From: an uncultured Acidobacteriota bacterium
GTDB lineage: Bacteria; Acidobacteriota; Vicinamibacteria; Vicinamibacterales; CAVVIG01
Length of the DNA stretch: 64,000 nucleotides
Direction of reading: 5' to 3'
Assembly (NCBI GenBank): GCA_963757655.1
Contig: CAVWSQ010000001.1
Location: forward strand, 1,520,961 to 1,584,960
Shown: positions 2,768 through 21,537 of the stretch, in pieces
Position numbering within the stretch: the stretch's first letter is position 1
Layout of the letters: each line of letters opens with the position of its first letter
Made by a program: the position numbers and the translations under genes
The notes under the pieces: model-generated
Databases searched by the model: none
The model's input: only the letters and a program-made list of their open reading frames with translations
Told to the model about the DNA's origin: nothing

Positions 2768-2769
2768 CG

Positions 2770-6406: not shown

Positions 6407-7533
6407 GCGCGGGCCGCCGCGGCGTCGCTTACGAGCGCATAGATCGCTTCGAGCCGCAGCGCCACCTGGGCGATGTCGTGGTGGGCGATGACGTGGGCGG
6501 AGCTCGATGCCGTCTTCTGCTGCAGCGCGGCAACCAGTGCTCCGCCGAGGGCGGCGACGTCGTGCTCCTCGCACAGCCAGACGCCAGGGCCGGCCGGCAC
6601 GACGTGCGGGATGTCGGCGTGTCTCGTCGTCACGATCGGCGTACCGATGGCTTGTGCCTCGAGCAGGATGGTGGGCGCGCCGCCTTCCGAATCGCCGTCG
6701 GCCGCGGTCACGCTCGGATGAATGAAGGCCGCGGCCGTGGCCAGCCGCCTGATGACGTCGTCATGCGGCCGCATTCCGACGAATTCGACCGCGGTGTCGA
6801 GGCCCAACTGCGAGGTCAACGCACGCGCCTCGTCTTCCGCAGCGCCGCCCCCGACAATCGCCAGGCGCGCTGCCGGCAGGCTGGCGCGAGCCTGCCCGAA
6901 CGCCGCAATCGCGTCGAGGAGACCCTTCTTCTCGACGAAGCGGCCGACAAACAGCACCGTTACGTCGCCGTCCGGCGACCAGCGTGGATACTTCTTCAGG
7001 TCGAGAGCGATGGGGTGAATGAGGGTGCGGTCCGGTGCAGCCCCCGCGGCAATGACCTTCGCGCGCATCTCCGGGCCCTCGGCAAGGAAGAAGTCACCGT
7101 CACGAAACAGGCGGGCGTAGCGATCGCGCCACTGCGGCAGGTAGGGCAGGACGGCCGCGTCGACCCCGTAGAGGCTCGTCACCAACGGCAGCCCCAGCGC
7201 CTTGGTGATTGCCACCATCTCGCAGCCGATCGGCCCGAAGTGCGCGTGCACGACTGCAGGCCTGATTCGCGCCAGCGCCGCTTCGACCCCGCGCCGCCAC
7301 GGCGAGCGCCCGGTCGCACGTTCGATCGACGCCGCCAGCCACCACTCCGCACTCAGCCTCGTCGCTGGCTGCGCCTGGACGTGGATTCGTGGAAACGGAA
7401 ATTCGGCGGCATTTTCGACACCGTGGCAGAGCACCGACGCCTCGAACCGCTGATGGCCCGCCACGATGGTGTAGACAAACGTCTCGCTGCGGGTGAGGAA
7501 GCGATCGACAGCGTGAACAACGCGCGGCGTCAT
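6403..7533 (-). CDS. Glycosyltransferase family 4-like
   Basis: ORF 6403..7689 trimmed to Met53 (MTPRVVHAVDRFLTRSETFVY...). C-terminal part reads FIHPSVTAADGDSEGGAPTILLEAQAIGTPIVTTRHADIPHVV. ATGA overlap 7530-7533. Confidence 0.8.
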   Translation of the reverse strand: MTPRVVHAVDRFLTRSETFVYTIVAGHQRFEASVLCHGVENAAEFPFPRIHVQAQPATRLSAEWWLAASIERATGRSPWRRGVEAALARIRPAVVHAHFGPIGCEMVAITKALGLPLVTSLYGVDAAVLPYLPQWRDRYARLFRDGDFFLAEGPEMRAKVIAAGAAPDRTLIHPIALDLKKYPRWSPDGDVTVLFVGRFVEKKGLLDAIAAFGQARASLPAARLAIVGGGAAEDEARALTSQLGLDTAVEFVGMRPHDDVIRRLATAAAFIHPSVTAADGDSEGGAPTILLEAQAIGTPIVTTRHADIPHVVPAGPGVWLCEEHDVAALGGALVAALQQKTASSSAHVIAHHDIAQVALRLEAIYALVSDAAAARA

Positions 7534-8690
7534 GCGTCGTAGGCCGGCACCGCCACGACGCGGTTGGTGCGGTACGACTCGACGCCGGCGAGGCAGGCCA
7601 GCACAGTGCGGCCGGCTTCCTCGATCGAGCACAGCGGCTGCCGTCGGTCGCGAATCGCGCTGACGAAGTCTTGGATGGCGGCGACGCACGCGAGCGAATG
7701 CTCGTAGAGGCGAACCGGATAACCGGCGGCGCCGTACTCGGCATTGGGCCGGCGCGCGAGAATCCGCAACATCTCGACCGTCCGCGCCATGAGGTAGGGC
7801 GGTAGATTGGTGCGCAGCTGGCGATACAGGCTCTGGCCGCCGCTCTTCCCCGGTCCCTTCAACAACGCCCGCTGCACGATCATCGGCCGGTGCAGCACTT
7901 CGCCGAGACGGTCGTCGTTGCGGTAGAGCAGGTTGCCGCGCACGGAGGCTTTGCGGCCGGACACCCGCACGGTGTGATCCTGCGGTCCGGGCTCACCAAA
8001 AGCGACGACGACCTTGCCGACGGCGCCAGACGCGAACCGGAGCGTCACCAGGTTGAGGTCCGATTCCGGATACTCCGGAAAGGCGCGATGCCCAGCGGCG
8101 GCAAACACTTCGACAATCTCCTCGCCGGCGAACCAGCGCAGCAGGTCGACGAAGTGGCAGCCGGAATAGACGAGCGGCGTCGCATTCTGCTCCTCGCGCC
8201 AGCGATCGTTGGCGAAGGCACGCTCCCTCAGGTCGTGCACGTAGTAACCCTCGAGGTACGAGAGGGCTCCCAGGCTCCCCGCCTCGATCAGCGCCTTGAT
8301 CCGGCGGTGCAGCGGAACGAAGCGCATCTGGTGGACAACGGCTACGGTCTGCGCCGTCGCCGCCGCGGCGGCGACGCGTATGGCGCGCAGACCCTCGATC
8401 GAATCGGTCAGCGGTTTTTCCACCAGCACGTGCAGGCCGCGGTCGAGTGCGGTCACGATGTATCGGGCGTGGCTGCCGTCCGGGGTGCAGATCACGACCG
8501 CGTCGAGATCGGGCCAGAAGCGCTCTTCGTCGGCGCACAAGATGTCGCCCGCTCCGCGCCCGGCCGCCCGGATCGCGGCCGCGGGCTTGGGATCAAAAAT
8601 CTTCGTCACGCGGCAGCCGGCGACACACGAGAAATAGAAATGGTGCGCCTGGCCCGCACCCCCGAAGCCGATGATCCCGACACGCAGCAT
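7530..8690 (-). CDS. Gfo/Idh/MocA family NAD(P)-dependent sugar oxidoreductase (WbpB-like role plausible)
   Basis: 386 aa. N-terminal Rossmann motif MLRVGIIGFGGAGQAHHFYF, followed by ...VVICTPDGSHARYIVTALDRGLHVLVEKPL, typical of this family. Confidence 0.85.
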   Translation of the reverse strand: MLRVGIIGFGGAGQAHHFYFSCVAGCRVTKIFDPKPAAAIRAAGRGAGDILCADEERFWPDLDAVVICTPDGSHARYIVTALDRGLHVLVEKPLTDSIEGLRAIRVAAAAATAQTVAVVHQMRFVPLHRRIKALIEAGSLGALSYLEGYYVHDLRERAFANDRWREEQNATPLVYSGCHFVDLLRWFAGEEIVEVFAAAGHRAFPEYPESDLNLVTLRFASGAVGKVVVAFGEPGPQDHTVRVSGRKASVRGNLLYRNDDRLGEVLHRPMIVQRALLKGPGKSGGQSLYRQLRTNLPPYLMARTVEMLRILARRPNAEYGAAGYPVRLYEHSLACVAAIQDFVSAIRDRRQPLCSIEEAGRTVLACLAGVESYRTNRVVAVPAYDA

Positions 8691-9478
8691 CAGGTGTGTC
8701 GCAGCGTTAGTAGACTCATGCGCGAATCGATGCCGGCCGATGCCGGCTGCGGCACGCGCATGCCCAGCGCCGCTCGATCCATCGCATACAGCGCTCGCGG
8801 TCCCAACCGCGTCAGCCCGTAGCGCACATACTTGTTGGCGGGCCCACCCGAGGGTAGCCAGTAGTACATCGGCCGCCGGTCGGCGACGCGTAGACTCAGT
8901 GAGTTGATCGCCGCATTCCAGAACTGCCGACTGCGATAGCGCAGATAGTCGGATCGCTGCTCTGTTCGTTCGGGCAGCGCCGCCGTGACCAGCAGCGCGC
9001 CACCTGGAGCCATCAGTCGCGCCAGGTTGGCCAGCGCACGAACCATCGCGCTGTCGTCTTGAATCAGATGCAGGACCTCCATGCTCTGGACGACGTCGAA
9101 TGTCCGGCCGTCCTGGTCATCATCGGCCGGCGCGGCGAGGTCCCCGACCCGAAATTCGGCGTCGGGAATCGTCCGCTGCAGAAAGGCCACCGCCCGGTCG
9201 GAAATGTCGAGCCCGACATACGAGGCCAGTGGAAATTCTGCGCGGTAAAAGCGCGCAAAGTGGCCCTGCCCGCAGCCGCCGTCGAGCACCGACCAGCGCC
9301 GATCGGCGGTCAGGCCGAGCCTGCGGAGAGCCTTGCGAAGCGCCGCCTGTTTGCAGGCATAGATGTATTCGTTGAGGCCTTCACCCGCACCAGCCCAGCC
9401 CGACTCCGACAGGGTGAACCGTTCGTAACGGCGGTTCCAGAATTCCCGGAGCCGTACCGCGTCAGTGTTCTTCGTCAC
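8690..9478 (-). CDS. Class I SAM-dependent methyltransferase
   Basis: ORF 8690..9643 trimmed to an internal GTG that forms a GTGA overlap with the upstream stop (9475-9478). Motif I VLDGGCGQGHFARFY; post-I LDISDRAV; FDVVQSMEVLHL. Confidence 0.75.
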   Translation of the reverse strand: MTKNTDAVRLREFWNRRYERFTLSESGWAGAGEGLNEYIYACKQAALRKALRRLGLTADRRWSVLDGGCGQGHFARFYRAEFPLASYVGLDISDRAVAFLQRTIPDAEFRVGDLAAPADDDQDGRTFDVVQSMEVLHLIQDDSAMVRALANLARLMAPGGALLVTAALPERTEQRSDYLRYRSRQFWNAAINSLSLRVADRRPMYYWLPSGGPANKYVRYGLTRLGPRALYAMDRAALGMRVPQPASAGIDSRMSLLTLRHT

Positions 9479-10395
9479 AGTTTGCGCGCCAGCAGTGCGA
9501 AGCCGCTGAAATAGGGTCCCCGCCAACTCCAGTGATCCTCCCGCCCGATGTTCGCGGTCTCGAACTGAATGCCTGCGACGAGTTCGCACTCCCGAGCAGC
9601 CACGTACTCGTAAAACAGCCGCGAAACGTCCTGCACCGGCCACGCCCCCGAGAGGGCGGGACCCTCTTCATGGTAGTAGGCGGGCTTCCATCGATCCATC
9701 GTGGCCCGCTGGAAATCGCAGCATTCCGACGTGACATAGATGAATCCGCGACGCTTCACAACCCTGATCATCTCGTCGAGCACACGGGCCAGCCGCCGCT
9801 GCTGCTCCTCGTACGGCACGAAGGTCCGGGCCGGCAGATCGGTGTCCAGATGTTCGACCACCGACAATGACGTGACCAGACCGAAGCTGGCATCCGCAAA
9901 GGGCAGGTCGCGCATCGAGCCCGCGACTGGAAACATCGGGTCGCCGCTCCCGGTAACCATCCGGTTGACGCGCTCTTTGAAGCCGCCCCAACTCCGCTCG
10001 GCAGGCGTCGACAAATCGAACGGCGTCACCACCGCGCCTTGGCGGCTCATCCATCTGGGCAGCGTGCTGCGTCCGGTGCCGACGTCGAGCACTCGCAGAC
10101 CCGACCAGCCGTCGATCTGGTGCAGAAGGGTGCCGTACTCGAACACGATCTGGCCCTCGAGCCGCGGCGAATTCATCACGTCGTAAAGATAGAGATCGAA
10201 GCGCTCCAGCACCGATCGCTCGTGCCCCAGCGCCTCAGGCAGCGCCGAGTTGAACATCACATTGGCTGGCAGCGCATGGGCTCCTCTCGGGCACGCGAGG
10301 GGACGCGCTCGCGCCGAGAGGACGCCGGCGGCCTGGCGGATGACGCGCCAGCCGTGGTCGAGGCGCTCTCTCGTCGTTGGCCTGGCGAGGGTCAC
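9475..10395 (-). CDS. Class I SAM-dependent methyltransferase
   Basis: ORF 9475..10452 trimmed to a GTG forming a GTGA overlap (10392-10395). Motif I VLDVGTGRSTLPRWM; FGLVTSLSVVEHL. Start is uncertain; an alternative is the downstream Met (MFNSALPE). Confidence 0.7.
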   Translation of the reverse strand: MTLARPTTRERLDHGWRVIRQAAGVLSARARPLACPRGAHALPANVMFNSALPEALGHERSVLERFDLYLYDVMNSPRLEGQIVFEYGTLLHQIDGWSGLRVLDVGTGRSTLPRWMSRQGAVVTPFDLSTPAERSWGGFKERVNRMVTGSGDPMFPVAGSMRDLPFADASFGLVTSLSVVEHLDTDLPARTFVPYEEQQRRLARVLDEMIRVVKRRGFIYVTSECCDFQRATMDRWKPAYYHEEGPALSGAWPVQDVSRLFYEYVAARECELVAGIQFETANIGREDHWSWRGPYFSGFALLARKL

Positions 10396-11588
10396 GCGTT
10401 GACCGCCATTTGTGCGAATACTCGAACACACGCCGTGACGACGTCCTCGCACTCAGCTTCACTGAACGCCGCCGAGATCGGGAGACGAACCAGCGACGCG
10501 GCGACCCGATCGGTGACCGGCAGTTCGACTGCGTCGATGTCGACGGCCTGCCTCGCGTACGGCGCGGAGTGCAACGGAACGTAGTGGAAGGCCGCCGCGA
10601 TGCCTTCGGCCTTCAACGCGCGGATGACCCAGTCGCGCCGTGCCGGTTCGACGAGCACCGCGAAGACGTGCCAGTTCGGGCGGCAGCCGGCAGGCACCGT
10701 CGGCAGCCGCACGACGCCGCGATACGGCGCGAGCGCGGCGAGCAGGCGCTCGGCTTGCGCGGTCTTGCGCCTGGCAATCTCCGGGAGCTTGAGGAACTGC
10801 TCGACCGCGACCGCCCCCAGCAGTTCCGACAGCACATAGCTGCTGCCAACGCCAACCCAGGTGTACTTGTCGAGCTCGCCGCGAAGGAAGGCCGTTCGGT
10901 CGGTGCCCTTCTCGCGCAGAATTTCGGCGGCGTGCAAGTAGGCGTCGTCGTCGCGAATCAGCAGCGCACCGCCCTCGCCGCAGACCAGATCCTTGGTCTC
11001 ATGAAACGACCAGGCGCCGAGCGCACCGATCGCGCCGAGCGCCCTGCCGTGAGAAGCGGCGTTGACACCGTGAGCGGCATCTTCGATGACGATCAGCCGG
11101 TTCGGCGCCGCAATCGCCTCGAGCGCCGCCATATCGCACGACATGCCGGCGTAGTGCATCGGGATGATCGCGCGTGTCCGTGCCGTCACGCGCCGCGCCA
11201 CGTCCTGCGGGTCGAGTCCAAGCGAGGTCGGGTCGATGTCGGCGAAGACAGGACGAGCGCCGGCCTTGACAACGGCGTTGGCGGTCGAGACGAAGGTGAA
11301 ACTGGGCAGAATCACTTCATCGCCCGGGCCGAGTCCGGCGACCGCCATGGCGATTTCCAGCGCCGCCGTGCACGAATTGAGCACCAGCACGCCGCGCGCG
11401 CCGGTCGCGTCCTTGATCAGGCGCTCCAGCTCGCGCCCTTTGGCGCCGTCGCCCGCCACGTGGGTGCCGGCCAGGACGTCGAGCATGGCCTGTTGTTCGC
11501 GCCCGTCGAACCACGGTTTGTGCAGCGGCACGCGCGCCGTCCGCACCGGGACGCCGCCGGCGACGGCCAGCAGATCCGACGAGATCAT
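10392..11588 (-). CDS. DegT/DnrJ/EryC1/StrS family PLP-dependent sugar aminotransferase (WbpE-like role plausible)
   Basis: HKPWFDGREQQAMLDVLAGTHVAGDGAKGRELERLI...NSCTAALEIAMAVAGLGPGDEVILPSFTFVSTANAV...WSFHETKDLVCGEGGALL. Start taken at Met4 (ATGA overlap 11585-11588). Confidence 0.9.
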   Translation of the reverse strand: MISSDLLAVAGGVPVRTARVPLHKPWFDGREQQAMLDVLAGTHVAGDGAKGRELERLIKDATGARGVLVLNSCTAALEIAMAVAGLGPGDEVILPSFTFVSTANAVVKAGARPVFADIDPTSLGLDPQDVARRVTARTRAIIPMHYAGMSCDMAALEAIAAPNRLIVIEDAAHGVNAASHGRALGAIGALGAWSFHETKDLVCGEGGALLIRDDDAYLHAAEILREKGTDRTAFLRGELDKYTWVGVGSSYVLSELLGAVAVEQFLKLPEIARRKTAQAERLLAALAPYRGVVRLPTVPAGCRPNWHVFAVLVEPARRDWVIRALKAEGIAAAFHYVPLHSAPYARQAVDIDAVELPVTDRVAASLVRLPISAAFSEAECEDVVTACVRVFAQMAVNA

Positions 11589-12508
11589 CGCGGCCACTCC
11601 CCCGCGTCGTGCGGCGTGCCGGCAGTCGTGACTCGCCTCGGCGGCCGGAGGTAGGACACCCAGTCGCCCAGGCTCAACCCAACATGACGGCCGGTGATGG
11701 CGGCGGCGCCGACACGGCCGGCCCTGATATGACGGCAGATGCCGCGCGCCTGGGTAAACACGAAGTTGCGCTTACTTCGTTCGAGGGCCTGGCCGGAGAG
11801 CGGGCACTCCGGGGAGTTCAGGACACGCCAGGCTTCGGCCGCGCTGCGGGCATAGGCGGCGATGCTTGCACCCTTGGCGAGTTCCTGCCCGGAGTGGACG
11901 CGATAGTAAAAGAGATCGCCCGGAACGAGCAGCACGTTGGCCGTCTGGCACGCACGAAGCCAGAACAGGTAGTCGCCGGCGTAGTCGATCGCGGGGAATC
12001 CGCCAAGCTCGCGGAACACGCCGGCGCGGAACAGCGCGGACGCCGGACCCTGTTGGAAGAGGCCGGCGCCGAGAAACTCGCGTTCGTAGGCCAGGCGAGG
12101 CGTCAACAGCATCGGACAGGGACCGCCGGGCCAGCTGCGCGAACCCGACAGGGCGAACGCGGCGCGGGGTTCCGCCTCGAGCGGTTCGACCATCGCCTGA
12201 AGGCAGTGCCGATACATCACATCGTCGGAGTCGTGGTACTTGAGATAGCGGCCACGGGCCAGAGCCGCGACATGGCGCCGGTTGGCGTAGTCGCCGAGGT
12301 TACCGGAATTAATCGAGACGCGGATCCGCGGGTCGCGGCGCGCATAGTCGTTGATGATGCCGACGGTGCCGTCAGAGGACTGGTCGTCGCAGATGACCAG
12401 CTCGAAGTCGCTGAGCGTCTGCGCGAGCACACTCTCGATCGATTCCGCAATGTAGCGCTCGCGGTTGTACGAGGTGAGCAGGACGCTGACGAGGGGTTGG
12501 CTGGGCAT
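11585..12508 (-). CDS. Glycosyltransferase family 2
   Basis: VSVLLTSYNRERYIAESIESVLAQTLSDFELVICDDQSSDGT...YLKYHDSDDVMY (DxD-type) is a classic GT2 N-terminal domain. Confidence 0.9.
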   Translation of the reverse strand: MPSQPLVSVLLTSYNRERYIAESIESVLAQTLSDFELVICDDQSSDGTVGIINDYARRDPRIRVSINSGNLGDYANRRHVAALARGRYLKYHDSDDVMYRHCLQAMVEPLEAEPRAAFALSGSRSWPGGPCPMLLTPRLAYEREFLGAGLFQQGPASALFRAGVFRELGGFPAIDYAGDYLFWLRACQTANVLLVPGDLFYYRVHSGQELAKGASIAAYARSAAEAWRVLNSPECPLSGQALERSKRNFVFTQARGICRHIRAGRVGAAAITGRHVGLSLGDWVSYLRPPRRVTTAGTPHDAGEWPR

Positions 12509-12524
12509 TGTCGATCGTGAGCTT

Positions 12525-13436
12525 TCAGCGCGGCCAGGCGTAGGCGATGCGATGCGCGAGCTCGGCTGCTGTCACGGCGGCGAGCACCATGAACCGGGAT
12601 TGCTCGAGCGCCGGCTCGGTCGTGCGTGCGAAGTCGTTCCGCGTGGTGAAGCCGGAGGTAAAACCAAGCCCGGCCGCAATCGCGACTGTTTTCTCGCTGT
12701 AGTCCGCTCGAGGAGCGCCAAACGGATAGGCCAGCGTCCCGACGTGCTGCCCGGTCCACGATTCGAGCGCCGAGCGGCACGACTCGAGCTCATGACGCTG
12801 GACCTCGGCTGACGCCTGCGCGAGCGGTGCGTGAGACGCCGTGTGGACACCGATCGCGAATCCCTCGTCCGCGAGCTGGCTCACTTGGGATGCGGTCATC
12901 GGCGCCAGCGCCGGCACGAGTTCCGCCGGCGTGTCGTGCTCGTCAGCGGCGGTGCGCCACACCTCGTCCGGCATGGCGCGAAGCGTTTCGACGGCGTGCG
13001 CTCCCAACGCACGCGCCACCGCGTCGAACCAGAACAGACGCTGACGGCGAACCGGTTCGGAGCAGACGAACACGACCGCGGGAATCCGGTAGTGGCGCAG
13101 GATCGGGCGTGCCAGCTCGAACACGTTGCGATAGCCATCATCGAAGGTGACGAGCACCGGCCGTTCTGGCAGCTCGCGCCCGCTGACCCGGGCCTCGCAG
13201 AATGTCTGGAGATCGATTGGGTGACAGGTCTCGGCGATGACCCGGCAGTGGGCGGCGAAGGTCGCCGCGACGACATGCAGGTTCGCGAACGGGATGCCGT
13301 CCTCCGCCGCGGACGCGCGAATCCCGTGATAGCAGAGCGCGAGCACGCCTGGAAACCTGTCACGCCCAAGGCGCTTCGCGTACCAGCCAGATGCCAGTAG
13401 TCCGGTCTTCACCGAGTCGATGAACGGCGGCGTCAT
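12525..13436 (-). CDS. Polysaccharide deacetylase (CE4 family)
   Basis: ORF 12525..13622 trimmed to Met63 (ATGA overlap 13433-13436). VLALCYHGI...VLVTFDDGYRNVFELARPILRHYRIPAVVFV...IGVHTASHAPL matches NodB-homology motifs. Confidence 0.85.
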   Translation of the reverse strand: MTPPFIDSVKTGLLASGWYAKRLGRDRFPGVLALCYHGIRASAAEDGIPFANLHVVAATFAAHCRVIAETCHPIDLQTFCEARVSGRELPERPVLVTFDDGYRNVFELARPILRHYRIPAVVFVCSEPVRRQRLFWFDAVARALGAHAVETLRAMPDEVWRTAADEHDTPAELVPALAPMTASQVSQLADEGFAIGVHTASHAPLAQASAEVQRHELESCRSALESWTGQHVGTLAYPFGAPRADYSEKTVAIAAGLGFTSGFTTRNDFARTTEPALEQSRFMVLAAVTAAELAHRIAYAWPR

Positions 13437-14137
13437 CGTTGCGGCAGGCGGCAGGCGATGGTCGTCAACACCGGAAACCTCGGGTCGTGCGCATCGAGCT
13501 CGGCCTCCGTCAGCTCTTCGAGCGCCAGGCCAAGCTGTGCCGCGATCGCCGAGAGGCAGTTGCCATGGCCGATGACCTCGAGCATCGTCTCGGGCCATGC
13601 CGCGCCAAGTTTCTGCCGCCATCCGTCCGGCGTCAGTCGCCAGTACTCGACCGCGTCTCCCGTAAGCGGCAGCAGACCTGCGGCGGACGCCAGGATCGTC
13701 CCGCCCGGCCTGACAACGCGGGCGGCACTGGCGAGGCAGAGATCGAGCTCACGAAAATGCGGCAGGGTGTTGGGCAGCAGCAGACAGTCGTACGCGCTGC
13801 TCGGGATGATTTCTGCGCAGCGCGCGAAATCGCACAGATGGGTCGGTTCGAACTGAGGGTCGATGTCGAACGAGTCGATGCGCGTGAGATCGTGCCCGTA
13901 GCGCACCGTGTAGCTGGTGCATTGAGTCTCGAGCACGTCGCCGGTGATGAGATCGCGATGTCTCGTGAGAAACGCGTGCAGGTAGTGGCGATCGACGGGT
14001 TGACCGCGCTCGAAACCGTAGCTCGACGAGAACGGCGTCGTCCTCCTGAGATTGCCCCAGCGAGGCAGTTCGTAACCGCGCAACAGGCAGCGCGCCTTGA
14101 CGGTCATCGCCGGCCCGGCCAGTTGCTTTGGCGACAA
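13433..14137 (-). CDS. Methyltransferase-like protein with divergent motif I
   Basis: 234-aa ORF: DRHYLHAFLTRHRDLITGDVLETQCTSYT...YDCLLLPNTLPHFRELDLCLASAARVVRPGGTILASAAG. It has a class-I-MTase-like layout, but the GxGxG motif is replaced. Start is uncertain (TTG 14137 or ATG 14107). Confidence 0.5.
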   Translation of the reverse strand: MSPKQLAGPAMTVKARCLLRGYELPRWGNLRRTTPFSSSYGFERGQPVDRHYLHAFLTRHRDLITGDVLETQCTSYTVRYGHDLTRIDSFDIDPQFEPTHLCDFARCAEIIPSSAYDCLLLPNTLPHFRELDLCLASAARVVRPGGTILASAAGLLPLTGDAVEYWRLTPDGWRQKLGAAWPETMLEVIGHGNCLSAIAAQLGLALEELTEAELDAHDPRFPVLTTIACRLPQR

Positions 14138-14164
14138 CCGAGGCGCGCCGGCTCGCCTTTTCCA

Positions 14165-15355
14165 TCATGGCGACGACCGGATCGCCGATCGCACCAGGCG
14201 AACCACCGGATTGGGAATCCACCACTGATCGAGACGACTCCCGTACTGTAGGTGCGATCCGTCGGCGAGCGGGCGATAGAGTTCCTGCCAGCGGGCGTAG
14301 ATCGCCTGATAGTCGGCCACGCGGTTGCGGATGTCGAACCGGTCCGCGACGGTGAGGCGGGCCGCCGCGCTCATCGCCTCGAGACCGGACCGATTGCGAT
14401 CGAGGCCGGCGATCACTGCGGCAAAGGCGCGCACGTCGCCGATCGGCAGGCGCTCGCCGTTGACGCCCGGGTCCACGATCTCAGGCACACCGCTGGGAAT
14501 GTCGCTGACGACGGCGGGGAGCCCCGCGGACATCGCCTCGACCAGCGCGACGGGAAAGCCCTCGAAGCGTGTTGGCAGCACGAAGACATCCTGCTGCGCG
14601 TACAGTTCCTGCAGCGCGGCGTTGGTCAACCCGCCGGTCCAGCGCACGCCGCCGTTAAACGACCACCGGCGCTTCAGCTCGGCTTCGTCGGGACCGGTTC
14701 CCGCCAGCGTCCACGCCACCTCTACGCCCATCGCCTGCAGGGCGCGATCGATTTCCGCCAGATCGAAGACGCCTTTCTGCTCCTGCTCGAATCGTCCGGC
14801 GTAGATCACTCGGAGCGGGCCATCAGCCCGCTGCCGAACCCGCGTCGGCAACGGAATGCCGTAAGGCAGGTGGAAGATCGAGTCGGCCCGGTGCGGCAGC
14901 CGCGCGATGAGCTCATCGTACATCCGCCGCGAGTAGGCGACGAACGCGTGCACGATCGGGTCGTGCCGGACCGCGAGGTCGTAGTAGTACTCGGTGTCAC
15001 CGTGCAGCATGTAGATCACGGCACGCCCGAAGTCGTGTAACGACGCGACCGCGAGGTCGAGCAGATCGCCGGCGACGTACACGCCGCCGCCGGAGGGGAC
15101 GGCACGAGCCACGCGGCGCATCACCGCGTGCAGATTCTCGATCGGGAGCGTGTATTCGACCGTGGTCTGCGAGTCGGCGGCGAGGGCCTGACGATATCGC
15201 GTGTCCACGTGCCGATGATTGTGGGTGAGGATCGCGTGATAGCTGAACCCATCGGGCTGCCGGTAGGACAGCAGATTGGCGATGATGTTGGTCATCCCGC
15301 CCATCTTGTCGGGCAGGACGTAGACAACACTCGGCCGAGCGCTCAGGGCTGCCAT
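14165..15355 (-). CDS. Glycosyltransferase family 4-like
   Basis: ORF 14165..15994 trimmed to ATG 15355 (MAALSARPSVVYVLPDKMGGMTNIIANLL). An alternative ATG at 15376 has AAGG upstream. C-terminal part reads FVLPTRFEGFPVALVEAMSAGLPAVVSDIPSGVPEIV. The long Arg-rich 5' extension overlaps the upstream gene. Confidence 0.85.
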   Translation of the reverse strand: MAALSARPSVVYVLPDKMGGMTNIIANLLSYRQPDGFSYHAILTHNHRHVDTRYRQALAADSQTTVEYTLPIENLHAVMRRVARAVPSGGGVYVAGDLLDLAVASLHDFGRAVIYMLHGDTEYYYDLAVRHDPIVHAFVAYSRRMYDELIARLPHRADSIFHLPYGIPLPTRVRQRADGPLRVIYAGRFEQEQKGVFDLAEIDRALQAMGVEVAWTLAGTGPDEAELKRRWSFNGGVRWTGGLTNAALQELYAQQDVFVLPTRFEGFPVALVEAMSAGLPAVVSDIPSGVPEIVDPGVNGERLPIGDVRAFAAVIAGLDRNRSGLEAMSAAARLTVADRFDIRNRVADYQAIYARWQELYRPLADGSHLQYGSRLDQWWIPNPVVRLVRSAIRSSP

Positions 15356-16179
15356 GCGCGCACCGTCATCGCCCATTGCAGCGCCTTGCCCGGAAACGGC
15401 GTGTCGTCGCCCGCAGCCGGCTGGCGCGACGGCAGCGGGACGAATTCGTCGATCGCGTAGGAGAAGCCGGCGCGGGCGAGGAGGTCGAGCACGCGCGGCG
15501 CCTGTCGGACCGATGGATCGAACTCGTGCAGGTCCATGACGATCGCCTTGACCTGGTGCAGCAGGGTCTCGCAATCGACCAGGACCGCTTCCTCGGCGCC
15601 TTCGATGTCGAGTTTGAGCAGATCGATCGGTTCTCCGGCCAGAACATCGCGCAGCCGTAGGCTTGGCACCGTCGTTGCCCGGCCATCGACGGCGCCAGGC
15701 AGGCTGCCGACCATCCCCGAATCGCTGCCTTCGCAGTGAAACGTCAGCGTGCCGGTCGAGGTCCAGAGCGCCGCATGCCGGCATGCGACGTCGGCCGCGC
15801 CATTGGCGCGCAGGTTCGTCTCGAGCATCGCGAACAGCGCCGGATCGGCCTCGAATGCAGTGATCCGGGCCTGGGGATAGGCCCGACGGAAGAACAAGCT
15901 CGCCAGGCCCAGGTTGGCGCCGCAATCGAGAATGCGCGGCGACGGCGACGAGGTCGTAAACGCGAGCGTGCGCTTCACGAAGATGTCGTCCCACTGCGGA
16001 CAGAGCGTCAGCAGGTCGGCGTAGCCCAGGTCGAGATCCATGAGGCGGATGCGGCCCGGTGTGAATCGCGGAGTCACGTCGGCCTGCGCACAGGCCAGCC
16101 GCCAGGCCGCCTTCTCGGGGGGCTCGAAAATGCGGCGGCGGAAGGCGCCCAGTGTCCGGATTGCGCGCGGCCTCTTCAT
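15343..16179 (-). CDS. FkbM family methyltransferase
   Basis: ORF 15343..16746 trimmed to Met190 (MKRPRAIRTL; ATGA overlap 16176-16179). ILDCGANLGLASLFFRRAYPQARITAFEADPALFAMLETNL...IDLLKLDIEGAEEAVL is the FkbM signature. Confidence 0.85.
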   Translation of the reverse strand: MKRPRAIRTLGAFRRRIFEPPEKAAWRLACAQADVTPRFTPGRIRLMDLDLGYADLLTLCPQWDDIFVKRTLAFTTSSPSPRILDCGANLGLASLFFRRAYPQARITAFEADPALFAMLETNLRANGAADVACRHAALWTSTGTLTFHCEGSDSGMVGSLPGAVDGRATTVPSLRLRDVLAGEPIDLLKLDIEGAEEAVLVDCETLLHQVKAIVMDLHEFDPSVRQAPRVLDLLARAGFSYAIDEFVPLPSRQPAAGDDTPFPGKALQWAMTVRAWQP

Positions 16180-16910
16180 AGCGCCCTCAGCACCGCGCCG
16201 TTGCTCAAATAGCAATGGGAATTGATGCTGATCCCCCGCGAGAGCCGGTTGGATCCGAGCAATCGAACCGTCGCGGCCGCTGCCAGACGCAGCAGCCCAA
16301 CTTTCGCCTTTGCCGAGAGCGACGGCGAGCTGGGAAGGATCGAAGCGTCCTCGATGAGAGTGGCGAGCACATCGGAAAAGCCACCGAGCGGCGCGGACTG
16401 CTCGACGGCAAAACCATGATCCGCTGCGAGGCGCTGAACCCCGTGCGAGGTGAGGCGGCGGAAATCGAACGGCTCCATGTGAAGCGGGAAGATGAAAGGC
16501 ACCGTCAGCACCACAGCGCCGCCGGGCGACACCAGCCGCCGGAGCCCGGCAAAGGCGGCGTCGATGTCGCCCACATGCTCCAGCACTTCGGTGCACAGCA
16601 GCACCGGATACGCCGGCATCGGTGTCGGCGCATCTTCGAGCCTGCTGATGATGTCCACCGTGCGCGCGCGGTTCTGCACGACGTCCATGCCGACATATTG
16701 CAGGCCGCTCGATTCGATGAGCGGGCGGAACGGCTGTTCGGCGCATCCGACGTCGAGTACGGCCCTGGACCCGAAGGGCACCGCGAGGAGCGGCGGCAGT
16801 GCCGCACGGACCCAGTCGTTCACCACGCGCACCGTCCAGCGATCACGGCCGGCCACGTCGGCGTAGTCGCGGCGATGCGAGAAGGACGACAGCGCCACCG
16901 CGTCGATCAC
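16176..16910 (-). CDS. Class I SAM-dependent methyltransferase
   Basis: ORF 16176..17021 trimmed to a GTG forming a GTGA overlap with the asnB stop (16907-16910). Motif I VLDVGCAEQPF; LLCTEVLEHVGD; LVSPGGAVVLTVPF. Confidence 0.75.
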   Translation of the reverse strand: MIDAVALSSFSHRRDYADVAGRDRWTVRVVNDWVRAALPPLLAVPFGSRAVLDVGCAEQPFRPLIESSGLQYVGMDVVQNRARTVDIISRLEDAPTPMPAYPVLLCTEVLEHVGDIDAAFAGLRRLVSPGGAVVLTVPFIFPLHMEPFDFRRLTSHGVQRLAADHGFAVEQSAPLGGFSDVLATLIEDASILPSSPSLSAKAKVGLLRLAAAATVRLLGSNRLSRGISINSHCYLSNGAVLRAL

Positions 16911-18769
16911 AGGTTCCTCAGGAATTCTCCGAGCATGCCCAGCGCCCATGGACGGCTCCAGTGTGCGGCGCCGCGCTGCCATGCGCCCCAGGTCGCGTCG
17001 GGTGCGCCAGGTGCAATCCATCCCGAGTCAACGAGGTGCGCCATGCCCGAGCGGACAAACGGCTGGAGATCGCCGGCCATCCATTGCGCAAATGGCAGCG
17101 TGAACCCCTGCTTCGGTCGATTCACTGCCGCAGACGGCAGCGGCCGCTCGAGCGTTTCGTGCAGCAGGCGCTTGTTGCGCATCAACGACGGGTGCGCGCC
17201 GAGATCGGGCCACACCGCGTCGAGCAGCTCGTGATCGACGAACGGCACGCGGACCTCGAGGCCGTGCGCCATCGACATCACGTCCAGATCCCGGAGCAGC
17301 TGCGAGCCGAGGTAGATGCGTGTCTCGAGCCGTGCCACCTGCCCCGCGAGGGTCGTCGCGTCGCCGTCGAACAAGGCATTCTCGACCTCCGCGACGCGCG
17401 CCGTCGTGGTAGACCAGCGATCGAGGAGGGCCGGACCGGCAAGCCGTTCGACTTCGGCTGGCATGAACAGGCCGCGCTGAGTGCGGTAGGCGGAATTCAT
17501 GAGGCCGTTTCCCGTCATGAAATGCTGCCAGCGCTCAGTGAGACGTTCCGGCAGCACGGCAGCCACGATCGGCGTCATCGCCGGTGCCAGCGGCCGGACG
17601 CGCTTCTTCCAGCGCATCGCCGCTGGCAGGCGACGGAATGACGGATAGCCGCCGAACATTTCGTCGCCGCCGGCGCCCGACAGCACAGCCTTGATACCGG
17701 TTTCGGCCACCGCCGCCGACACGTAGTAGGAGTTCACGGCGTCGAGCGTCGGCTGATCGAGCCTCGCCACAATGCGCGGCAGGTCGCCCACGACCCGCGA
17801 CGGATCGAGCACGAGCTCATGGTGAGTCGTGCCGAACGTCGAGGCCACCAGCCTGGCGTACTCGTGCTCGGATGAGCCGCCATCGAAGCGGACGGTGTAG
17901 GTGTTGAGCCTCGGCGCACCGGCGTCGCAGGCGGCCGACAGAATCGCCGACGAGTCGATGCCTCCCGAGAGAAAAACCCCGACGGGTACATCAGCGACCA
18001 GGTGCGCCGTCACGCTCTGTTGGACGGCGGCGCCGGCTCGCTCGCGCAAGTCCGACTCGGTGCGGGCGGAGTGGGGACGCGCATAAACGCTGGCGACATC
18101 CGCATACGCCTGGCGGGTACGCGGACCCGCCTGCGACCAGCGGGTCCACGAGCCTGGCGACACGCTTTCCACGCCGGCAACATAGGTCAGCGGAGGCGGC
18201 ACCGTGCCCCACGAGAGAAAACCGAGCACGCCGGCGGGATCGATCGCGCGCTCGACGAGACCGGAAGATACCAGGGCATGAATCTCTGAAGCGAAGGCGA
18301 CCGACCGATCGGTGGCCGCCACATAGAGCGGCTTGATGCCGAAGCGGTCGCGCGCGAGTATCAGCGCTCGCGCCTCTGCGTCCCACCAGGCGAGCGCGAA
18401 CATGCCGCGAAGCCGCGCGAGCGCCGCGGGACCATCGCACGCCAGCAGTCGCAGCAAAACTTCCGTGTCGCTGCCGGTGGCGAACCGCTCGCCGCGCGCT
18501 TCGAGCGATCGCCGCAGTTCGCGGTAGTTGTAGATTTCGCCGTTGAACACGAGGCGATGGCGGCCATCGACGCTTGCCATCGGCTGCGCGCCGGACGGGC
18601 CGGGATCGATGATTGCCAGCCGGGTGTGGACGAAAACGACGTCCTGCACCGGCGAGCGCCACACCCCGCAGCCGTCGGGCCCCCGGTGCGCCAGCGCGGC
18701 GGCGAGCGCCGCGGCGGAATCCGGCGCGATCGCGCCGTCCAGGCGCACCACGCCGGCAATGCCGCACAT
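16907..18769 (-). CDS. asnB: Asparagine synthase (glutamine-hydrolysing) family amidotransferase
   Basis: 620 aa. N-terminal MCGIAG (Cys2 Ntn glutaminase), ...FNGEIYNY..., and PP-loop VGVFLSGGIDSSAI. Paralogues of this type are common in polysaccharide loci. Confidence 0.9.
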   Translation of the reverse strand: MCGIAGVVRLDGAIAPDSAAALAAALAHRGPDGCGVWRSPVQDVVFVHTRLAIIDPGPSGAQPMASVDGRHRLVFNGEIYNYRELRRSLEARGERFATGSDTEVLLRLLACDGPAALARLRGMFALAWWDAEARALILARDRFGIKPLYVAATDRSVAFASEIHALVSSGLVERAIDPAGVLGFLSWGTVPPPLTYVAGVESVSPGSWTRWSQAGPRTRQAYADVASVYARPHSARTESDLRERAGAAVQQSVTAHLVADVPVGVFLSGGIDSSAILSAACDAGAPRLNTYTVRFDGGSSEHEYARLVASTFGTTHHELVLDPSRVVGDLPRIVARLDQPTLDAVNSYYVSAAVAETGIKAVLSGAGGDEMFGGYPSFRRLPAAMRWKKRVRPLAPAMTPIVAAVLPERLTERWQHFMTGNGLMNSAYRTQRGLFMPAEVERLAGPALLDRWSTTTARVAEVENALFDGDATTLAGQVARLETRIYLGSQLLRDLDVMSMAHGLEVRVPFVDHELLDAVWPDLGAHPSLMRNKRLLHETLERPLPSAAVNRPKQGFTLPFAQWMAGDLQPFVRSGMAHLVDSGWIAPGAPDATWGAWQRGAAHWSRPWALGMLGEFLRNL

Positions 18770-19716
18770 CAGAAGAACCGGGATTTCACTTTGATTTCGT
18801 CGTTGGGCTGCACTTTGTCTTCGAGCTTCACCGAAACCTCGGACGGCTTGCCGTCCACCGAGCGGATGACGGTCAGCCGCCGATCCGATCCACGGTCGGT
18901 CAGTCCCCCGGCGAGGATGATCGCCTGACCCACCGTGGTACCGGTGTCGAGCACGAACGACCCGGGGTTCTTGATGAAGCCCGAGATGTAGAACCGTTTC
19001 GCAACCGGCACGTTGACGATGTCGCCGTCGAGCAAGACGAGATCGCGGCCAACCCGCCCGAGCTCGAGATCCTTGCGATTCACCTCGATCGGCTCGGGCG
19101 CCTTTTCGCCCGGCTTCGGTGGATGCATGACCAGCACGTCGTTGCTGGCGTTCTGCGTCGGCGAGCCGGCCAGCGCCAGCGCCTCGAGCAGCGACATGGT
19201 GGTGCCGAGCAGCGGCACCTTGCCCGGGGTGCGAACCTCGCCCGTCACCAGAATGCTGCGCGCCTTGAACTGATCGACCTCGACGCGCACCTGCGGATTG
19301 CGAAGGAAGCCGGCCTTCAGCAGCGCGGTGATCTTGTCCTGTGCTTCAGCCAGCGAAAGTCCGGCCAGCGGGACGCGGCTCAGATACGGCATCGAGATCG
19401 TGCCGTCGGTGTCGACGCGATACTTGCCCGTCAATTCCGTTTCATCCGAGACGATGATCGACAGGTTGTCCTGCGGGCCGATGACATACCCTTCGGTCGG
19501 CGTACCGGGCGTCGCGGGTTCACCTTTCGGCTGGCCGCCTCCGTCCGTCTTCGGAATCTCGAAGTCGGGTTTGTACGGCGGGGCTGGAGTCGGCGGCTGT
19601 GCCGGGGCTGTGGCCGGCGGTTGCGCTGGAGGCGGTGTCTGTGGTGTCTGGGCGGCAAGCGAACCGCCGGCAATCAAGACGAGGGCAAAGGCTGCGATAC
19701 ACGGGTTCTTGCGCAT
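18769..19716 (-). CDS. Polysaccharide export protein (Wza-like; Poly_export plus SLBB domains)
   Basis: Signal peptide MRKNPCIAAFALVLIAGGSLAAQ, a Pro-rich linker, then YVIGPQDNLSIIVSDETELTGKYRVDTDGTISMPYLSRVPLAGLSLAEAQDKI...VTGEVRTPGKVPL...LLEALALAGSPT. Confidence 0.85.
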   Translation of the reverse strand: MRKNPCIAAFALVLIAGGSLAAQTPQTPPPAQPPATAPAQPPTPAPPYKPDFEIPKTDGGGQPKGEPATPGTPTEGYVIGPQDNLSIIVSDETELTGKYRVDTDGTISMPYLSRVPLAGLSLAEAQDKITALLKAGFLRNPQVRVEVDQFKARSILVTGEVRTPGKVPLLGTTMSLLEALALAGSPTQNASNDVLVMHPPKPGEKAPEPIEVNRKDLELGRVGRDLVLLDGDIVNVPVAKRFYISGFIKNPGSFVLDTGTTVGQAIILAGGLTDRGSDRRLTVIRSVDGKPSEVSVKLEDKVQPNDEIKVKSRFF

Positions 19717-19731: not shown

Positions 19732-20748
19732 CTATTCCGAGACCCTGACGAGTGGAATCCCCAGCTGTCGAGCCTTCCGATACAGATTTGGGCGCTGAAT
19801 ACCGAGTGCCTGGGCAGCGGGCGCCATCCGCCACTCATGGTGCTGCAGCACCGATGCGATGTAGTCGCGTTCGAAACGCTGACGTGCTTCCTTGAGAGTG
19901 CCCGACGGCACGAATGGGGCGTGCACACGATGGAGTTGCAGTACGGGCAGAATCTGTTCGATCTGCACCACCTCTTCGACCCCCTCGGCGACCACGCGCT
20001 CGACCGCGGTGCGCAATTCCGCCAGATTGCCAGGCCAGGTGAGCGCGCCGAACAGCGCGAGCGCCGCCTGCGTGAACGTCCTCGGCGGACGCGCGATCGC
20101 CGCGCACGCTTCTTCCATCAACCGCACCGCGAGCGCCGGGACGTCGCCAGGCCGATCACGCAGCGGCGGCAGGTCGATGCGGACCGCCGACAACCGGCGA
20201 TAGAGGTCGCCGCGAAAGCGGTGCGCGTGCACGTCGGCGTCGATGCCCGGCTGCGCGCTGGCGATCAAGCGCACCGCCGTGGCCATTGGCGCACCGCCGA
20301 TGCGGACCTCGCCGTCGCGGGCGATGCGCGCCAGCTGCGCCTGCGCCGATGCGCGCAATTCGGTGACACCGCGCAGATACAACGTCCCGCCGCGCGCCGT
20401 GGCCACCCCGCTGTTGGCGGCAACCGACTCGAGGTCGGTCGCTGCGCCAAGCGCCGGTTGACCGAACAACAGCCGGTCGACGCTGGCCGAGTCGCCGGCA
20501 TCGCAGTGAACAGTCACGAACGGCGCGGCAGCGGATTGGCCACGTTGATGGAGCTCGCGCGCGACGCTTTCGACGTCGGCGCCCACTTCCGCGGTGATGA
20601 GCGAGCCGCCGTCGACCAACGCCGCGCGTCGAACCAGCTCCTGAACACGCATGATTGCCGGAGAACGGCCAAAGAGCTCGATGGCCCCCTGGTCGGGTCG
20701 GACAAAGCGGGCTGGTCCAGCATCTGCCAGCATAAGAGGATCTGCCAT
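19732..20748 (-). CDS. Sigma-54-activator (bEBP)-like transcription regulator with degenerate AAA+ motifs and intact C-terminal HTH
   Basis: ORF 19732..20835 trimmed to Met30. It aligns by eye with the canonical bEBP at 60257-61678. Walker A LITGESGTGKE becomes LITAEVGADVE, GAFTGA becomes ALGAATD, and Walker B LFLDEIG becomes LYLRGVT. WPGNLAELR and the Fis-type HTH (MAPAAQALGIQRPNLYRKARQLGI) are retained. There is no receiver domain. Confidence 0.75.
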   Translation of the reverse strand: MADPLMLADAGPARFVRPDQGAIELFGRSPAIMRVQELVRRAALVDGGSLITAEVGADVESVARELHQRGQSAAAPFVTVHCDAGDSASVDRLLFGQPALGAATDLESVAANSGVATARGGTLYLRGVTELRASAQAQLARIARDGEVRIGGAPMATAVRLIASAQPGIDADVHAHRFRGDLYRRLSAVRIDLPPLRDRPGDVPALAVRLMEEACAAIARPPRTFTQAALALFGALTWPGNLAELRTAVERVVAEGVEEVVQIEQILPVLQLHRVHAPFVPSGTLKEARQRFERDYIASVLQHHEWRMAPAAQALGIQRPNLYRKARQLGIPLVRVSE

Positions 20749-21069
20749 GTGGTGAACTCTTGATTTGAGTCTGTGGTACAGCTTCGCCCCGTCAATTACA
20801 GAAACTGACGAGGCTGCCGAAATGGGCCATGCCAACTGACGACAATTAATGACTCAATATGACACTAACGACATATCGTGTCAACTGCGATACGGCAGCC
20901 GAGCACGACAGATACAGCCGGATCCTCTGCAGCGGCGGTATTTTGTCGTAAGCGTTGTTGTTACAGGTCTTTATGCGAGACGGGTCGTAGAACCCATCAT
21001 GTGATGTATCGGCGGGCCGCGTTGTATCTATATGGAGTGGAGGATGTATCTCGACGGAAACTTGCGCTC
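20749..21069 (-). promoter_or_regulatory. AT-rich control region upstream of the glycan operon
   Basis: 320-bp non-coding stretch visibly poorer in G+C than its flanks. It contains the inverted repeat TGACAC-N12-GTGTCA (20860-20883). (A)TGTATC occurs at 21004, 21023 and 21044, and the opposite orientation GATAC(A) at 20889 and 20911. No promoter hexamers could be assigned with confidence. Confidence 0.45.
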
Positions 21070-21537
21070 CTAGTCGTGCCTTGGCGACTCCGGGGTGATC
21101 GGACCGGAGGCGGCCGATCGCGGCGGTGCGGGAACGTAGACGTCGCCGGGATGATCGAACAGGCTGTTGATGAAGAACGCCAGCCCCATGATGACGAAGA
21201 AGCCGCCGACGCCGATGCCCTCGTTCATGCTGCCGCCGGCGACACCAATCAGCATGACCAGGCCGAAGCCAACGCCCATCAGCGTGACGCCGGCTCGGCG
21301 GTGGCGCCCGGGTGCGCGGTGGCGCAGCCGCTCGTAGCTCTGCATCGCCCGATCGAAGCCGCGCGGATCCACTTCGGGAGGCGGCACCAGCCCTCGCTCG
21401 ATCATCGCAATGCGTTCACGGACTTCGAGCTCACGGACACGCGCCTTGCTCAGCGTGAGCACGATGATGTAGGCGAAGGTGCAGATCGTTCCGACGATCG
21501 GGATGAGAAAAGGCCACGCCATTTGCAGGTCGTCCAT
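21070..21537 (-). CDS. Small integral membrane protein (DUF6249-like, IAMIERG motif), divergent from the ECF sigma gene
   Basis: ORF 21070..21621 trimmed to Met29, which is preceded by GGAGG. MDDLQMAWPFLIPIVGTICTFAYIIVLTLSKARVRELEVRERIAMIERGL, followed by two more hydrophobic helices. The family assignment is from memory only. Confidence 0.65.
   Translation of the reverse strand: MDDLQMAWPFLIPIVGTICTFAYIIVLTLSKARVRELEVRERIAMIERGLVPPPEVDPRGFDRAMQSYERLRHRAPGRHRRAGVTLMGVGFGLVMLIGVAGGSMNEGIGVGGFFVIMGLAFFINSLFDHPGDVYVPAPPRSAASGPITPESPRHD

Follow-up and report, generated by a model that had tools for sequence, protein, structure and literature searches.

The DNA analysed here, hereafter the window, is a stretch of 64,000 nucleotides (64 kb) from an uncultured bacterium of the Acidobacteriota (Vicinamibacterales; GenBank assembly GCA_963757655.1, contig CAVWSQ010000001.1, positions 1,520,961 to 1,584,960), and all coordinates below refer to it. 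On its minus strand lies a regulator gene, which we call REG (19732..20748; ATG at 20748, TAG at 19734-19732). It encodes a 338-amino-acid protein derived from bacterial enhancer-binding proteins (bEBPs), with an AAA+ domain of the sigma-54-interaction type, a lid and a Fis-type helix-turn-helix (HTH). A gap of 15 nt, caacggaacgtcatc, separates REG from the ATG at 19716 of the next gene (18769..19716, minus strand), which encodes an outer-membrane polysaccharide export (OPX) protein of the EpsE/Wza type and is followed by a long co-directional string of exopolysaccharide (EPS) genes. Upstream is an intergenic region of 321 nt (20749-21069), AT-richer than its surroundings. A preliminary description of the locus had placed REG 15 nt from a Wza-like gene, and both the gap and the kind of neighbour are confirmed.

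The regulator and its AAA+ domain

Pfam places Sigma54_activat (PF00158) at residues 26-191 (E 4e-23), AAA_lid_14 at residues 197-271 (E 2e-12) and HTH_8 at residues 291-327 (19768..19878, minus strand). Residues 1-25 gave no Pfam match at all, neither to a receiver or sensor domain nor to PF20161, the VpsR-type domain. This is the layout that the preliminary description had given, an AAA+ sigma-54 domain and a Fis-type HTH with no receiver or sensor. In NCBIfam no equivalog cutoff was reached, the best model being NtrX (NF051870) at 171.3 bits against a cutoff of 600. An AlphaFold2 model computed from a 57-sequence family alignment had a mean predicted local distance difference test (pLDDT) score of 86 and a predicted template-modelling score (pTM) of 0.72, with disorder confined to the first 18 residues, a linker (275-282) and the three C-terminal residues; pLDDT at the N-terminus was 35-43. 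A Foldseek search of the model against the PDB returned NtrX first (5m7p, E 1.7e-22), followed by NtrC1, ZraR, VpsR (7v2b), FleQ, DmpR and PspF. Superposed on NtrC1, PspF and ZraR, the model reached target-normalised TM-scores of about 0.8. As modelled, the fold is that of a bEBP, in agreement with the earlier proposal of a conserved fold with dead signatures.

To place the catalytic motifs, REG was compared by BLASTP with the bEBP encoded in the same window (60257-61678, minus strand; 29% identity, E 2e-31) and aligned by HMMER to NifA, NtrX and ZraR. At Walker A (residues 53-60, 20569..20592; this and the following motifs all on the minus strand) GESGTGKE has become AEVGADVE, with Val at the position of the P-loop lysine and Asp at that of the third glycine. 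The L1 loop, QPALGAATDLE (residues 97-107, 20428..20460), is as long as a GAFTGA loop, but GAFTGA itself is replaced by a variable sequence that ends in a conserved (D)LE. Walker B (TLYLRGVT, residues 122-129, 20362..20385) has RG for DE, GTLFLDEI having changed to GTLYLRGV. Sensor I reads ASAQ in place of AATN, a change of Asn to Gln, and in the sensor II segment (WPGNLAELRT, residues 238-247, 20008..20037) GNVRELRN is replaced by GNLAELRT, with Ala for the conserved Arg. The R-finger segment, RFRGDLYRRL (residues 177-186, 20191..20220), is intact, with its arginines R179 and R185 kept as in canonical bEBPs. The alignments agree with the Walker A, GAFTGA and Walker B substitutions of the preliminary description and add the losses in sensors I and II. 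REG thus has none of the defining bEBP motifs, Walker A GxxxxGK(E/T/S), Walker B hhhhDE and GAFTGA. Because the P-loop lysine, the Walker B DE, the sensor residues and GAFTGA are gone, REG very probably cannot hydrolyse ATP. Probably it cannot bind ATP either, and judged by these motifs it would be unable to remodel sigma-54 holoenzyme.

The same losses recur throughout the relatives of REG. A homology search gave 1831 matches, the best 120 of which are 70-85% identical, about 338 amino acids long and of the same domain layout. In an alignment of 26 orthologues in this range of identity, the degenerate signatures are the same in 26/26, namely TAExGxxVE, L(Y/F)L(H/Q/R)(N/G/S/D)V and a variable L1 ending in TDLE, with the lysine absent. 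Taken over 60-85% identity, orthologues share the length of REG and its dead motifs. Since the orthologues share the degenerate motifs, the objection that they would be canonical and this copy simply decaying does not hold. Ratios of nonsynonymous to synonymous substitution rates (dN/dS) were calculated by the Nei-Gojobori method (NG86). Seven orthologous loci had been found in Acidobacteriota/Vicinamibacterales genomes by a genome contig scan with patterns of a close orthologue, and the calculation used seven genomes, the window and six of these loci, leaving out L008 for its frameshift. The ratio for the whole gene is 0.12-0.27; by part it is 0.20 in the AAA+ domain, 0.26 in the lid, 0.22 in the N-terminal 25 residues and 0.04 in the HTH, no other part of REG being as constrained. 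With dS at about 1 the ratios are, if anything, overestimates. The HTH is also near-invariant in the family down to 45% overall identity. REG is under purifying selection and not decaying. In the excluded locus (L008:8001-9015, metagenome-assembled genome MFD03975.bin.2.34) the regulator is frameshifted, and several neighbouring genes there give split matches; the frameshift is most likely an assembly error rather than the mark of a pseudogene.

The clade was delimited by an exhaustive HMMER search of 1.84 billion representatives clustered at 50% identity, which gave 3113 matches below 1e-30. The best 150 of these were classified. Neither GAFTGA nor the Walker B DE is present in 55 that have no basic residue at the Walker A lysine position, nor in 53 in which that lysine is Arg (GE(R/P)G(T/S)GR). 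Another 19 are fully canonical, at 29-36% identity to REG, 17 are partial sequences and six show mixed motif patterns. A looser split, by absence of GAFTGA and DE only, yields 109 dead representatives among the best 150. At the lysine position these have R in 61 and otherwise A, V or P, and K in none; the D of Walker B is R, E, Q or A and the E is N, H, D or G, and G(A/S)(F/Y)T occurs in 0/109. Other positions have become conserved in the dead clade, R144 in 97/109 and D145 in 96/109 (ARDGE vs canonical LQExE), and E107 at the end of L1 is Glu in 84/109 and Asp in 9 more, a position not conserved in canonical bEBPs. The R-finger arginines R179 (91/109) and R185 (95/109) are retained along with the scaffold residues R199, H67, W238 and N241. 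Clade members of about 460 amino acids carry a degenerate receiver domain, some with a weak match to the Pfam VpsR domain, and because of these cousins REG looks, by its sequence, like a receiver-less branch of a response-regulator-derived clade.

Public records describe these proteins differently. P0001 (NCBI, ENA) is 100% identical to REG but is annotated to start at Met33, giving 306 amino acids and cutting off the conserved N-terminal peptide and the region of the first AAA+ helix. P0385 (MGH9144471.1), near-identical to REG and of 338 amino acids, belongs to REG's 90%-identity cluster, lies on another contig and is named 'sigma-54-dependent transcriptional regulator' by NCBI; relatives are labelled 'NtrX' or 'HydG' by the Joint Genome Institute (JGI). 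For the REG family all three names are very probably misleading.

Predicted promoter, repeats and leader

A consensus scan of the upstream region predicts a promoter of the sigma-70/sigmaA type at 20856..20884 (minus strand). It consists of TTGACA (20884-20879), a 17-nt spacer and TG-t-CATATT ending at 20856, the TG making it an extended -10; the hexamers match at 10/12 positions, with 0.3 such matches expected by chance. TTGACA and GTCATATTnAGTC are invariant in eight aligned orthologous upstream regions, and TTGACAC is retained down to 47% protein identity. The sigma-54 element TGGCAC-N5-TTGCW was not found within two mismatches in 20749-21069, in line with the earlier report of no sigma-54 promoter upstream of the operon. 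We considered TGGCAT at 20834-20829 as a hidden sigma-54 promoter and rejected it for want of a GC at the -12 position.

Two groups of short repeats accompany the promoter and form a candidate operator. The proximal group is a pair of (T)GTATC copies 22 nt apart (20889..20915, minus strand), the nearer of which lies 4 nt upstream of the -35. The distal group (21006..21050, minus strand) consists of three GATAC(A) repeats spaced 18-22 nt and inverted relative to the proximal pair, so that GTATC stands on the plus strand at 21006, 21024 and 21046. If transcription starts about 7 nt after the -10, near 20849, the repeats are centred near -42, -64, -159, -177 and -199. In the alignment of eight upstream regions, the invariant blocks are the three GATAC(A), the two opposite (T)GTATC, TTGACA, GTCATATTnAGTC and a leader block, GTGACGGGGCGAAGCTGTA; the remaining sequence is poorly conserved. 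The proximal pair keeps its positions at -31 and -9 from TTGACA in 12/15 loci. Even at about 47% protein identity, GTATC-N17-GTATC-N4-TTGACAC is retained in two loci (L023, L024) and one repeat in a third (L022), while the upstream DNA of all three is unalignable outside the repeat-promoter module. Locus L020, outside any EPS context, still has GTATC/GATAC repeats and the leader motif, but TTGACA is absent.

Counts that presuppose no motif lead to the same sequences. Among all 5-mers in 15 upstream regions, ATACA/TGTAT ranks first (47 observed vs 3.2 expected) and GATAC/GTATC second (62 observed vs 5.8 expected, with at least two copies in 14/15 regions). The two overlap and make up one extended half-site, (T)GTATC / GATAC(A). 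Phased GTATC pairs occur in the 64-kb window only upstream of REG, two being found vs 0.11 expected. A metagenome scan with the 16-base pattern GTATC-N17/18-GTATC-N4-TTGACA gave at least 120 matches, and most of the matches listed are on low-GC contigs and due to chance. Of the 35 listed matches on contigs of at least 58% G+C, 20 are followed on the same strand, after 115-252 nt, by the start of a REG homologue of 46-71% identity, and nine more are REG-type promoters cut by the contig end, 29/35 in total. No convincing target other than REG itself emerged among the high-GC matches listed when the operator-promoter pattern was used to look for further regulon members. Given this conservation and the metagenome matches, the promoter-plus-repeat module is a hallmark of the REG family.

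Between the predicted promoter and the start codon lies a further conserved element, the leader motif CTGTAATTGACGGGGCGAAGCTGTA (20777..20801, minus strand), in the predicted 5' untranslated region. Its consensus, CTGTAA(G/C)TGAn(G/A)GGGCG(A/G)AGC(TGT), is present at this place in 15/15 loci (L001-L008, L020-L026). The distance from motif to start codon ranges from 6 to 116 nt with no preservation of reading frame. The idea of a coding N-terminal extension was rejected because this distance varies by non-multiples of three. There is a loose resemblance to the ops/JUMPstart element (GGCGGTAG) found in polysaccharide operons that depend on RfaH. The motif gave no match to Rfam, JUMPstart included, and RNAalifold found no consensus structure (-0.5 kcal/mol, compensatory pairs absent); a hairpin or pseudoknot drawn by hand failed across loci. 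Bearing on antitermination of the ops/RfaH kind, tblastn found no NusG/RfaH paralogue in the 64-kb window.

The EPS operon and its neighbourhood

The OPX gene downstream of REG matches NCBIfam EpsE (TIGR03028) at 150 bits, below the cutoff of 262.65 bits. The rest of the co-directional EPS string extends over 1463..18769 (minus strand), as assigned by NCBIfam and by synteny in orthologous loci, the limits of the operon being predicted. It contains genes for an AsnB-type amidotransferase, methyltransferases, GT4 and GT2 glycosyltransferases, a polysaccharide deacetylase, a WecE-like aminotransferase and a GFO-type oxidoreductase. In 7/7 close orthologous genomes REG is followed by OPX, the AsnB-type amidotransferase and then methyltransferases, glycosyltransferases and further EPS genes, and is preceded by trigger factor, a divergent pair of extracytoplasmic function (ECF) sigma factor and anti-sigma factor, and a small membrane protein. 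Among more distant members (46-65% identity), 6/7 lie directly upstream of a Poly_export/SLBB gene, with GT4 and methyltransferase genes beyond it; in two of these six a BBP2_2 porin intervenes between regulator and OPX. Altogether REG is linked to OPX in 13/14 other loci.

Several of these loci have features of their own. In L022 and L024 (about 47% identity) the intervening gene encodes a BBP2_2 (PF10082) beta-barrel, a family associated with PEP-CTERM/exosortase-type EPS systems. Two proteins of 629 amino acids, P0271 and P0274, come from independent assemblies of two metagenome sources; in each the regulator reading frame lacks a stop and runs on, in frame, through the signal peptide of the EpsE-type OPX into its body (...KARQLGIPIKSLLTALLLVATLASALSAQ...). 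Because this would join a cytoplasmic regulator to a secreted lipoprotein, a real fusion is unlikely, and the join is probably a read-through or overlapping-gene call. The two do show very tight coupling of REG and OPX.

Upstream of REG, the window encodes in 21070-22695 a predicted membrane protein of 183 amino acids on the same strand as REG, and a divergent pair, an ECF sigma factor (21649-22194) and a putative anti-sigma factor (22216-22695). In one relative, that membrane protein has a counterpart that matches DUF6249. The close orthologues and L025 share this neighbourhood, which other family loci lack. Within the EPS string, 14165-17021 (minus strand) holds overlapping long open reading frames (ORFs) of 281, 467 and 609 amino acids. 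The N-terminal 215 or so residues of the 609-residue GT4 ORF are much less conserved in L003 (47% vs 76%), which makes them probable shadows of another reading frame in high-GC DNA; the FkbM-type methyltransferase and GT4 genes proper are likely shorter than in the ORF list. Elsewhere, at 58280-61678 (minus strand), lies a canonical two-component pair, a HAMP/PAS-type histidine kinase ORF of 651 amino acids and an NtrC-type response regulator of 473, the comparator used above. The latter has GESGTGKE, GAFTGA and DE intact, which implies that sigma-54 is in use in this organism.

Known relatives and a proposed role for REG

The name 'atypical EBPs' denotes a recognised class of bEBP homologues that have no GAFTGA and operate with sigma-70; it includes TyrR, HupR, HsfA, PhhR, NtrX and VpsR (PMC6158489). 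The NtrC proteins of R. capsulatus and Caulobacter are further members, and both need ATP binding or hydrolysis (bioRxiv 10.1101/2023.06.06.543975). REG shares with the class its EBP homology and the loss of GAFTGA and, in silico, the type of promoter, its own operon having a conserved -35/-10 and no -24/-12; it lacks the N-terminal receiver or sensory domain. The closest functional analogue is VpsR of Vibrio cholerae. VpsR is without GAFTGA, its Walker B reads ND, ATPase activity was undetected, and it forms open complexes without ATP; bound immediately upstream of the -35 of PvpsL, it activates this sigma-70 promoter of a polysaccharide (vps) operon (PMC6158489; see also PMC8268162). Like REG, both VpsR and its homologue BrpR of V. 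vulnificus combine the loss of GAFTGA with a non-catalytic Walker B. Since VpsR has been characterised at vps operons, the preliminary description was not right in stating that no regulator of such a type was known for polysaccharide synthesis. VpsR nevertheless differs from REG in having an N-terminal receiver-like (VpsR) domain and in that only GAFTGA and Walker B are given as degenerate, whereas REG has also lost the Walker A lysine and sensors I and II. By sequence VpsR scores 87.9 bits, against 119 for NifA and NtrX, and ZraR and others also rank above it; with this ranking and no PF20161, REG does not qualify as a VpsR orthologue. VpsR is not known to be the first gene of the operon it controls.

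NtrX (Brucella abortus, Caulobacter) is the best match of REG both in NCBIfam (171 bits) and in structure. GAFTGA is missing here too, and the promoters at which NtrX acts are of the sigma-70 type, its own among them, which it represses (PMC6158489). Unlike REG, it keeps Walker A (GPSGAGKE), the Walker B DE (LYLDEV) and a receiver domain, and it has been crystallised with ATP and ADP bound (5m7n and 5m7p, by their titles). TyrR/PhhR, HupR, HsfA and the NtrC proteins of R. capsulatus and Caulobacter are likewise bEBP-derived and without a functional GAFTGA; they work with sigma-70 holoenzyme, some of them with non-consensus Walker motifs (PMC6158489; bioRxiv 10.1101/2023.06.06.543975). In contrast to REG, all have N-terminal sensory or receiver domains and none is described as the dedicated first gene of an EPS operon. 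EpsI/Nla24 of Myxococcus xanthus, compared here by its description, is an NtrC-like activator tied to the eps locus and EPS production that binds cyclic di-GMP (c-di-GMP) (PMC4877007) and, unlike REG, has a receiver domain. FleQ of Pseudomonas aeruginosa, also an EBP, controls EPS operons (pel) in a sigma-70-dependent manner from two promoter sites, as both repressor and activator (PMC12564702). Matsuyama et al. (2016) reportedly assigned the c-di-GMP contacts of FleQ to R144 (LFRS), R185/N186 (after Walker A) and E330/R334 (ExxxR). A FleQ-type site in REG was rejected by alignment, the contact residues not being conserved: R144 has no aligned counterpart, N186 corresponds to E65, and E330/R334 correspond to the charge-swapped R209/E213, while R185 is kept as R64 but is common in canonical bEBPs too. 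The bare architecture of REG, AAA+ followed by HTH with no cis-acting regulatory domain, is that of E. coli PspF. PspF, however, is catalytically competent as a sigma-54 activator and is controlled in trans by PspA, and REG is catalytically dead by its sequence. REG is thus set apart from the characterised atypical EBPs by the absence of an N-terminal domain, by more extensive losses, by clade-specific motifs and by its place as the operon's first gene. Its clade is a more extreme branch of them, and the concept itself will not surprise specialists.

Taken together, we consider it reasonably probable that REG is a sigma-54-independent, ATP-independent and probably autoregulatory DNA-binding regulator of the EPS operon. 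REG would descend from NtrC-type sigma-54 activators and no longer work as one, being instead an oligomeric, ATP-independent transcription factor of the kind represented by VpsR, NtrX and TyrR. It would bind the phased (T)GTATC / GATAC(A) repeats, both the pair abutting the -35 and the inverted cluster some 120-160 bp further upstream, at the sigma-70/sigmaA-type promoter before its own gene, where the housekeeping sigma factor (sigmaA) would be used. From there it would control the long OPX-type operon that it heads, and itself with it, the dead AAA+ module being kept as a scaffold for oligomerisation and signal input. Of the possibilities raised in the preliminary description, a conventional DNA-binding regulator made from a former enzyme is the one best supported, by the constraint on the HTH and by the conservation of the promoter and phased repeats. 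As to the direction of control, activation is suggested by the positions of the sites, -42 and -64, while a consensus -35 with a distal inverted cluster would also fit repression by looping. As input, a second messenger or a partner protein acting on the AAA+ scaffold is plausible.

Several points weigh against this proposal. What is said of DNA binding, oligomeric state and a failure to bind nucleotides is prediction, and the conserved R-finger arginines in a constrained AAA+ domain leave room for a phosphate-bearing ligand. With its consensus -35 and fair -10, the promoter would suit a repressor no less than an activator. Some other regulator conserved in this lineage could be what recognises the GTATC repeats, and the leader motif and GTCAT repeats around the -10 compete with them as operator. 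The close orthologues are not independent samples, and one homologue (P0123, locus L020) does not adjoin EPS genes and has an unrelated context.

Other explanations differ in what they make of the dead AAA+ domain. Were REG the remnant of a true sigma-54 activator, without function and on its way to becoming a pseudogene, one might expect every catalytic motif to be substituted and perhaps an orthologue to be frameshifted, as in L008. We regard this as extremely improbable, because the ORF is intact and of equal length in more than 100 homologues at 70-85% identity, dN/dS is low with dS at about 1, the degenerate positions are common to at least 109 clusters of 50% identity together with newly conserved motifs, and the split matches around the frameshift look like an assembly error. 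Very improbable, too, is a sigma-54-dependent activator with non-canonical motifs. The Pfam Sigma54_activat match and the NCBI name would favour it, and the bona fide bEBP in the window suggests that the genome has sigma-54; against it stand the joint loss of the P-loop lysine, Walker B DE, GAFTGA and sensor II arginine, an NCBIfam score far below any equivalog cutoff, and an upstream region with a conserved -35/-10 in place of a -24/-12. A third possibility is that REG acts mainly by protein-protein contacts, joining or poisoning the rings of active bEBPs or supplying R-fingers to them, in keeping with the R-finger arginines and oligomerisation scaffold that survive beside a dead nucleotide site. 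Mixed rings are known in the superfamily, as with HrpR/HrpS. The preliminary description had likewise raised a partner or antagonist of active bEBPs. This is disfavoured, and we think it unlikely, because REG is syntenic with OPX/EPS genes and with no bEBP, its own DNA-binding domain is its best conserved part, and the phased repeats upstream travel with the gene.

The remaining alternatives concern how REG would be controlled. A nucleotide second messenger, c-di-GMP for example, may be sensed by the dead AAA+ domain and switch REG on the EPS promoter, which would extend the explanation we prefer rather than exclude it. Purifying selection on the AAA+ domain, the charged residues conserved round the former nucleotide site (R64, H67, R144, D145, R179, R185) and the receiver-bearing cousins with weak VpsR-domain matches are consistent with this, as is the precedent of c-di-GMP-binding, EPS-controlling proteins of the EBP type, VpsR, FleQ and EpsI/Nla24 (PMC6158489, PMC12564702, PMC4877007); the c-di-GMP residues of FleQ are not conserved in REG, though, and the VpsR-type N-terminal domain is absent, and we hold a receptor role to be possible but doubtful. 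Control in trans by a partner, as for PspF, docking on the N-terminal peptide MADPLMLADA... or on the 'DLE' tip of L1, is rather less likely. It would suit an AAA+ and HTH protein with no sensor, the conserved L1 glutamate, and an N-terminal peptide of 25 residues that is conserved (dN/dS 0.22) though predicted to be disordered. No consistently linked candidate partner was found, the membrane protein and the ECF/anti-sigma pair being absent from several family loci. About equally tentative is the idea that L1 has been re-targeted, its acidic (D)LE tip (93/109) and the 'ARDGE' of helix 4 contacting the housekeeping sigma factor or the C-terminal domain of the RNA polymerase alpha subunit (alpha-CTD) while a nucleotide-free AAA+ oligomer sits at the phased GTATC sites beside the -35.

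The proposed role of REG bears on organisms that are hard to grow. In soil, Vicinamibacteria and their relatives in the Acidobacteriota rank among the most abundant bacteria, and the exopolysaccharides they make are important for soil aggregation and for survival. We found no characterised regulator of these EPS loci in the literature that we searched. REG is a conserved, operon-leading candidate for their master regulator, and the present analysis supplies with it a predicted promoter, a predicted operator in the phased GTATC repeats and a conserved leader motif, where the current public names of the family would mislead regulon predictions. With its clade, the atypical EBPs, so far a small set, come to include a large group with a fully dismantled nucleotide site, a natural test of what an AAA+ scaffold does once it is no longer a motor. 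If the re-targeting of L1 were true, this Acidobacteria-wide family would preserve a class of activators in its switch from sigma-54 to sigma-70 holoenzyme, and would act as master switch for the OPX-type exopolysaccharide operons of bacteria abundant in soil.

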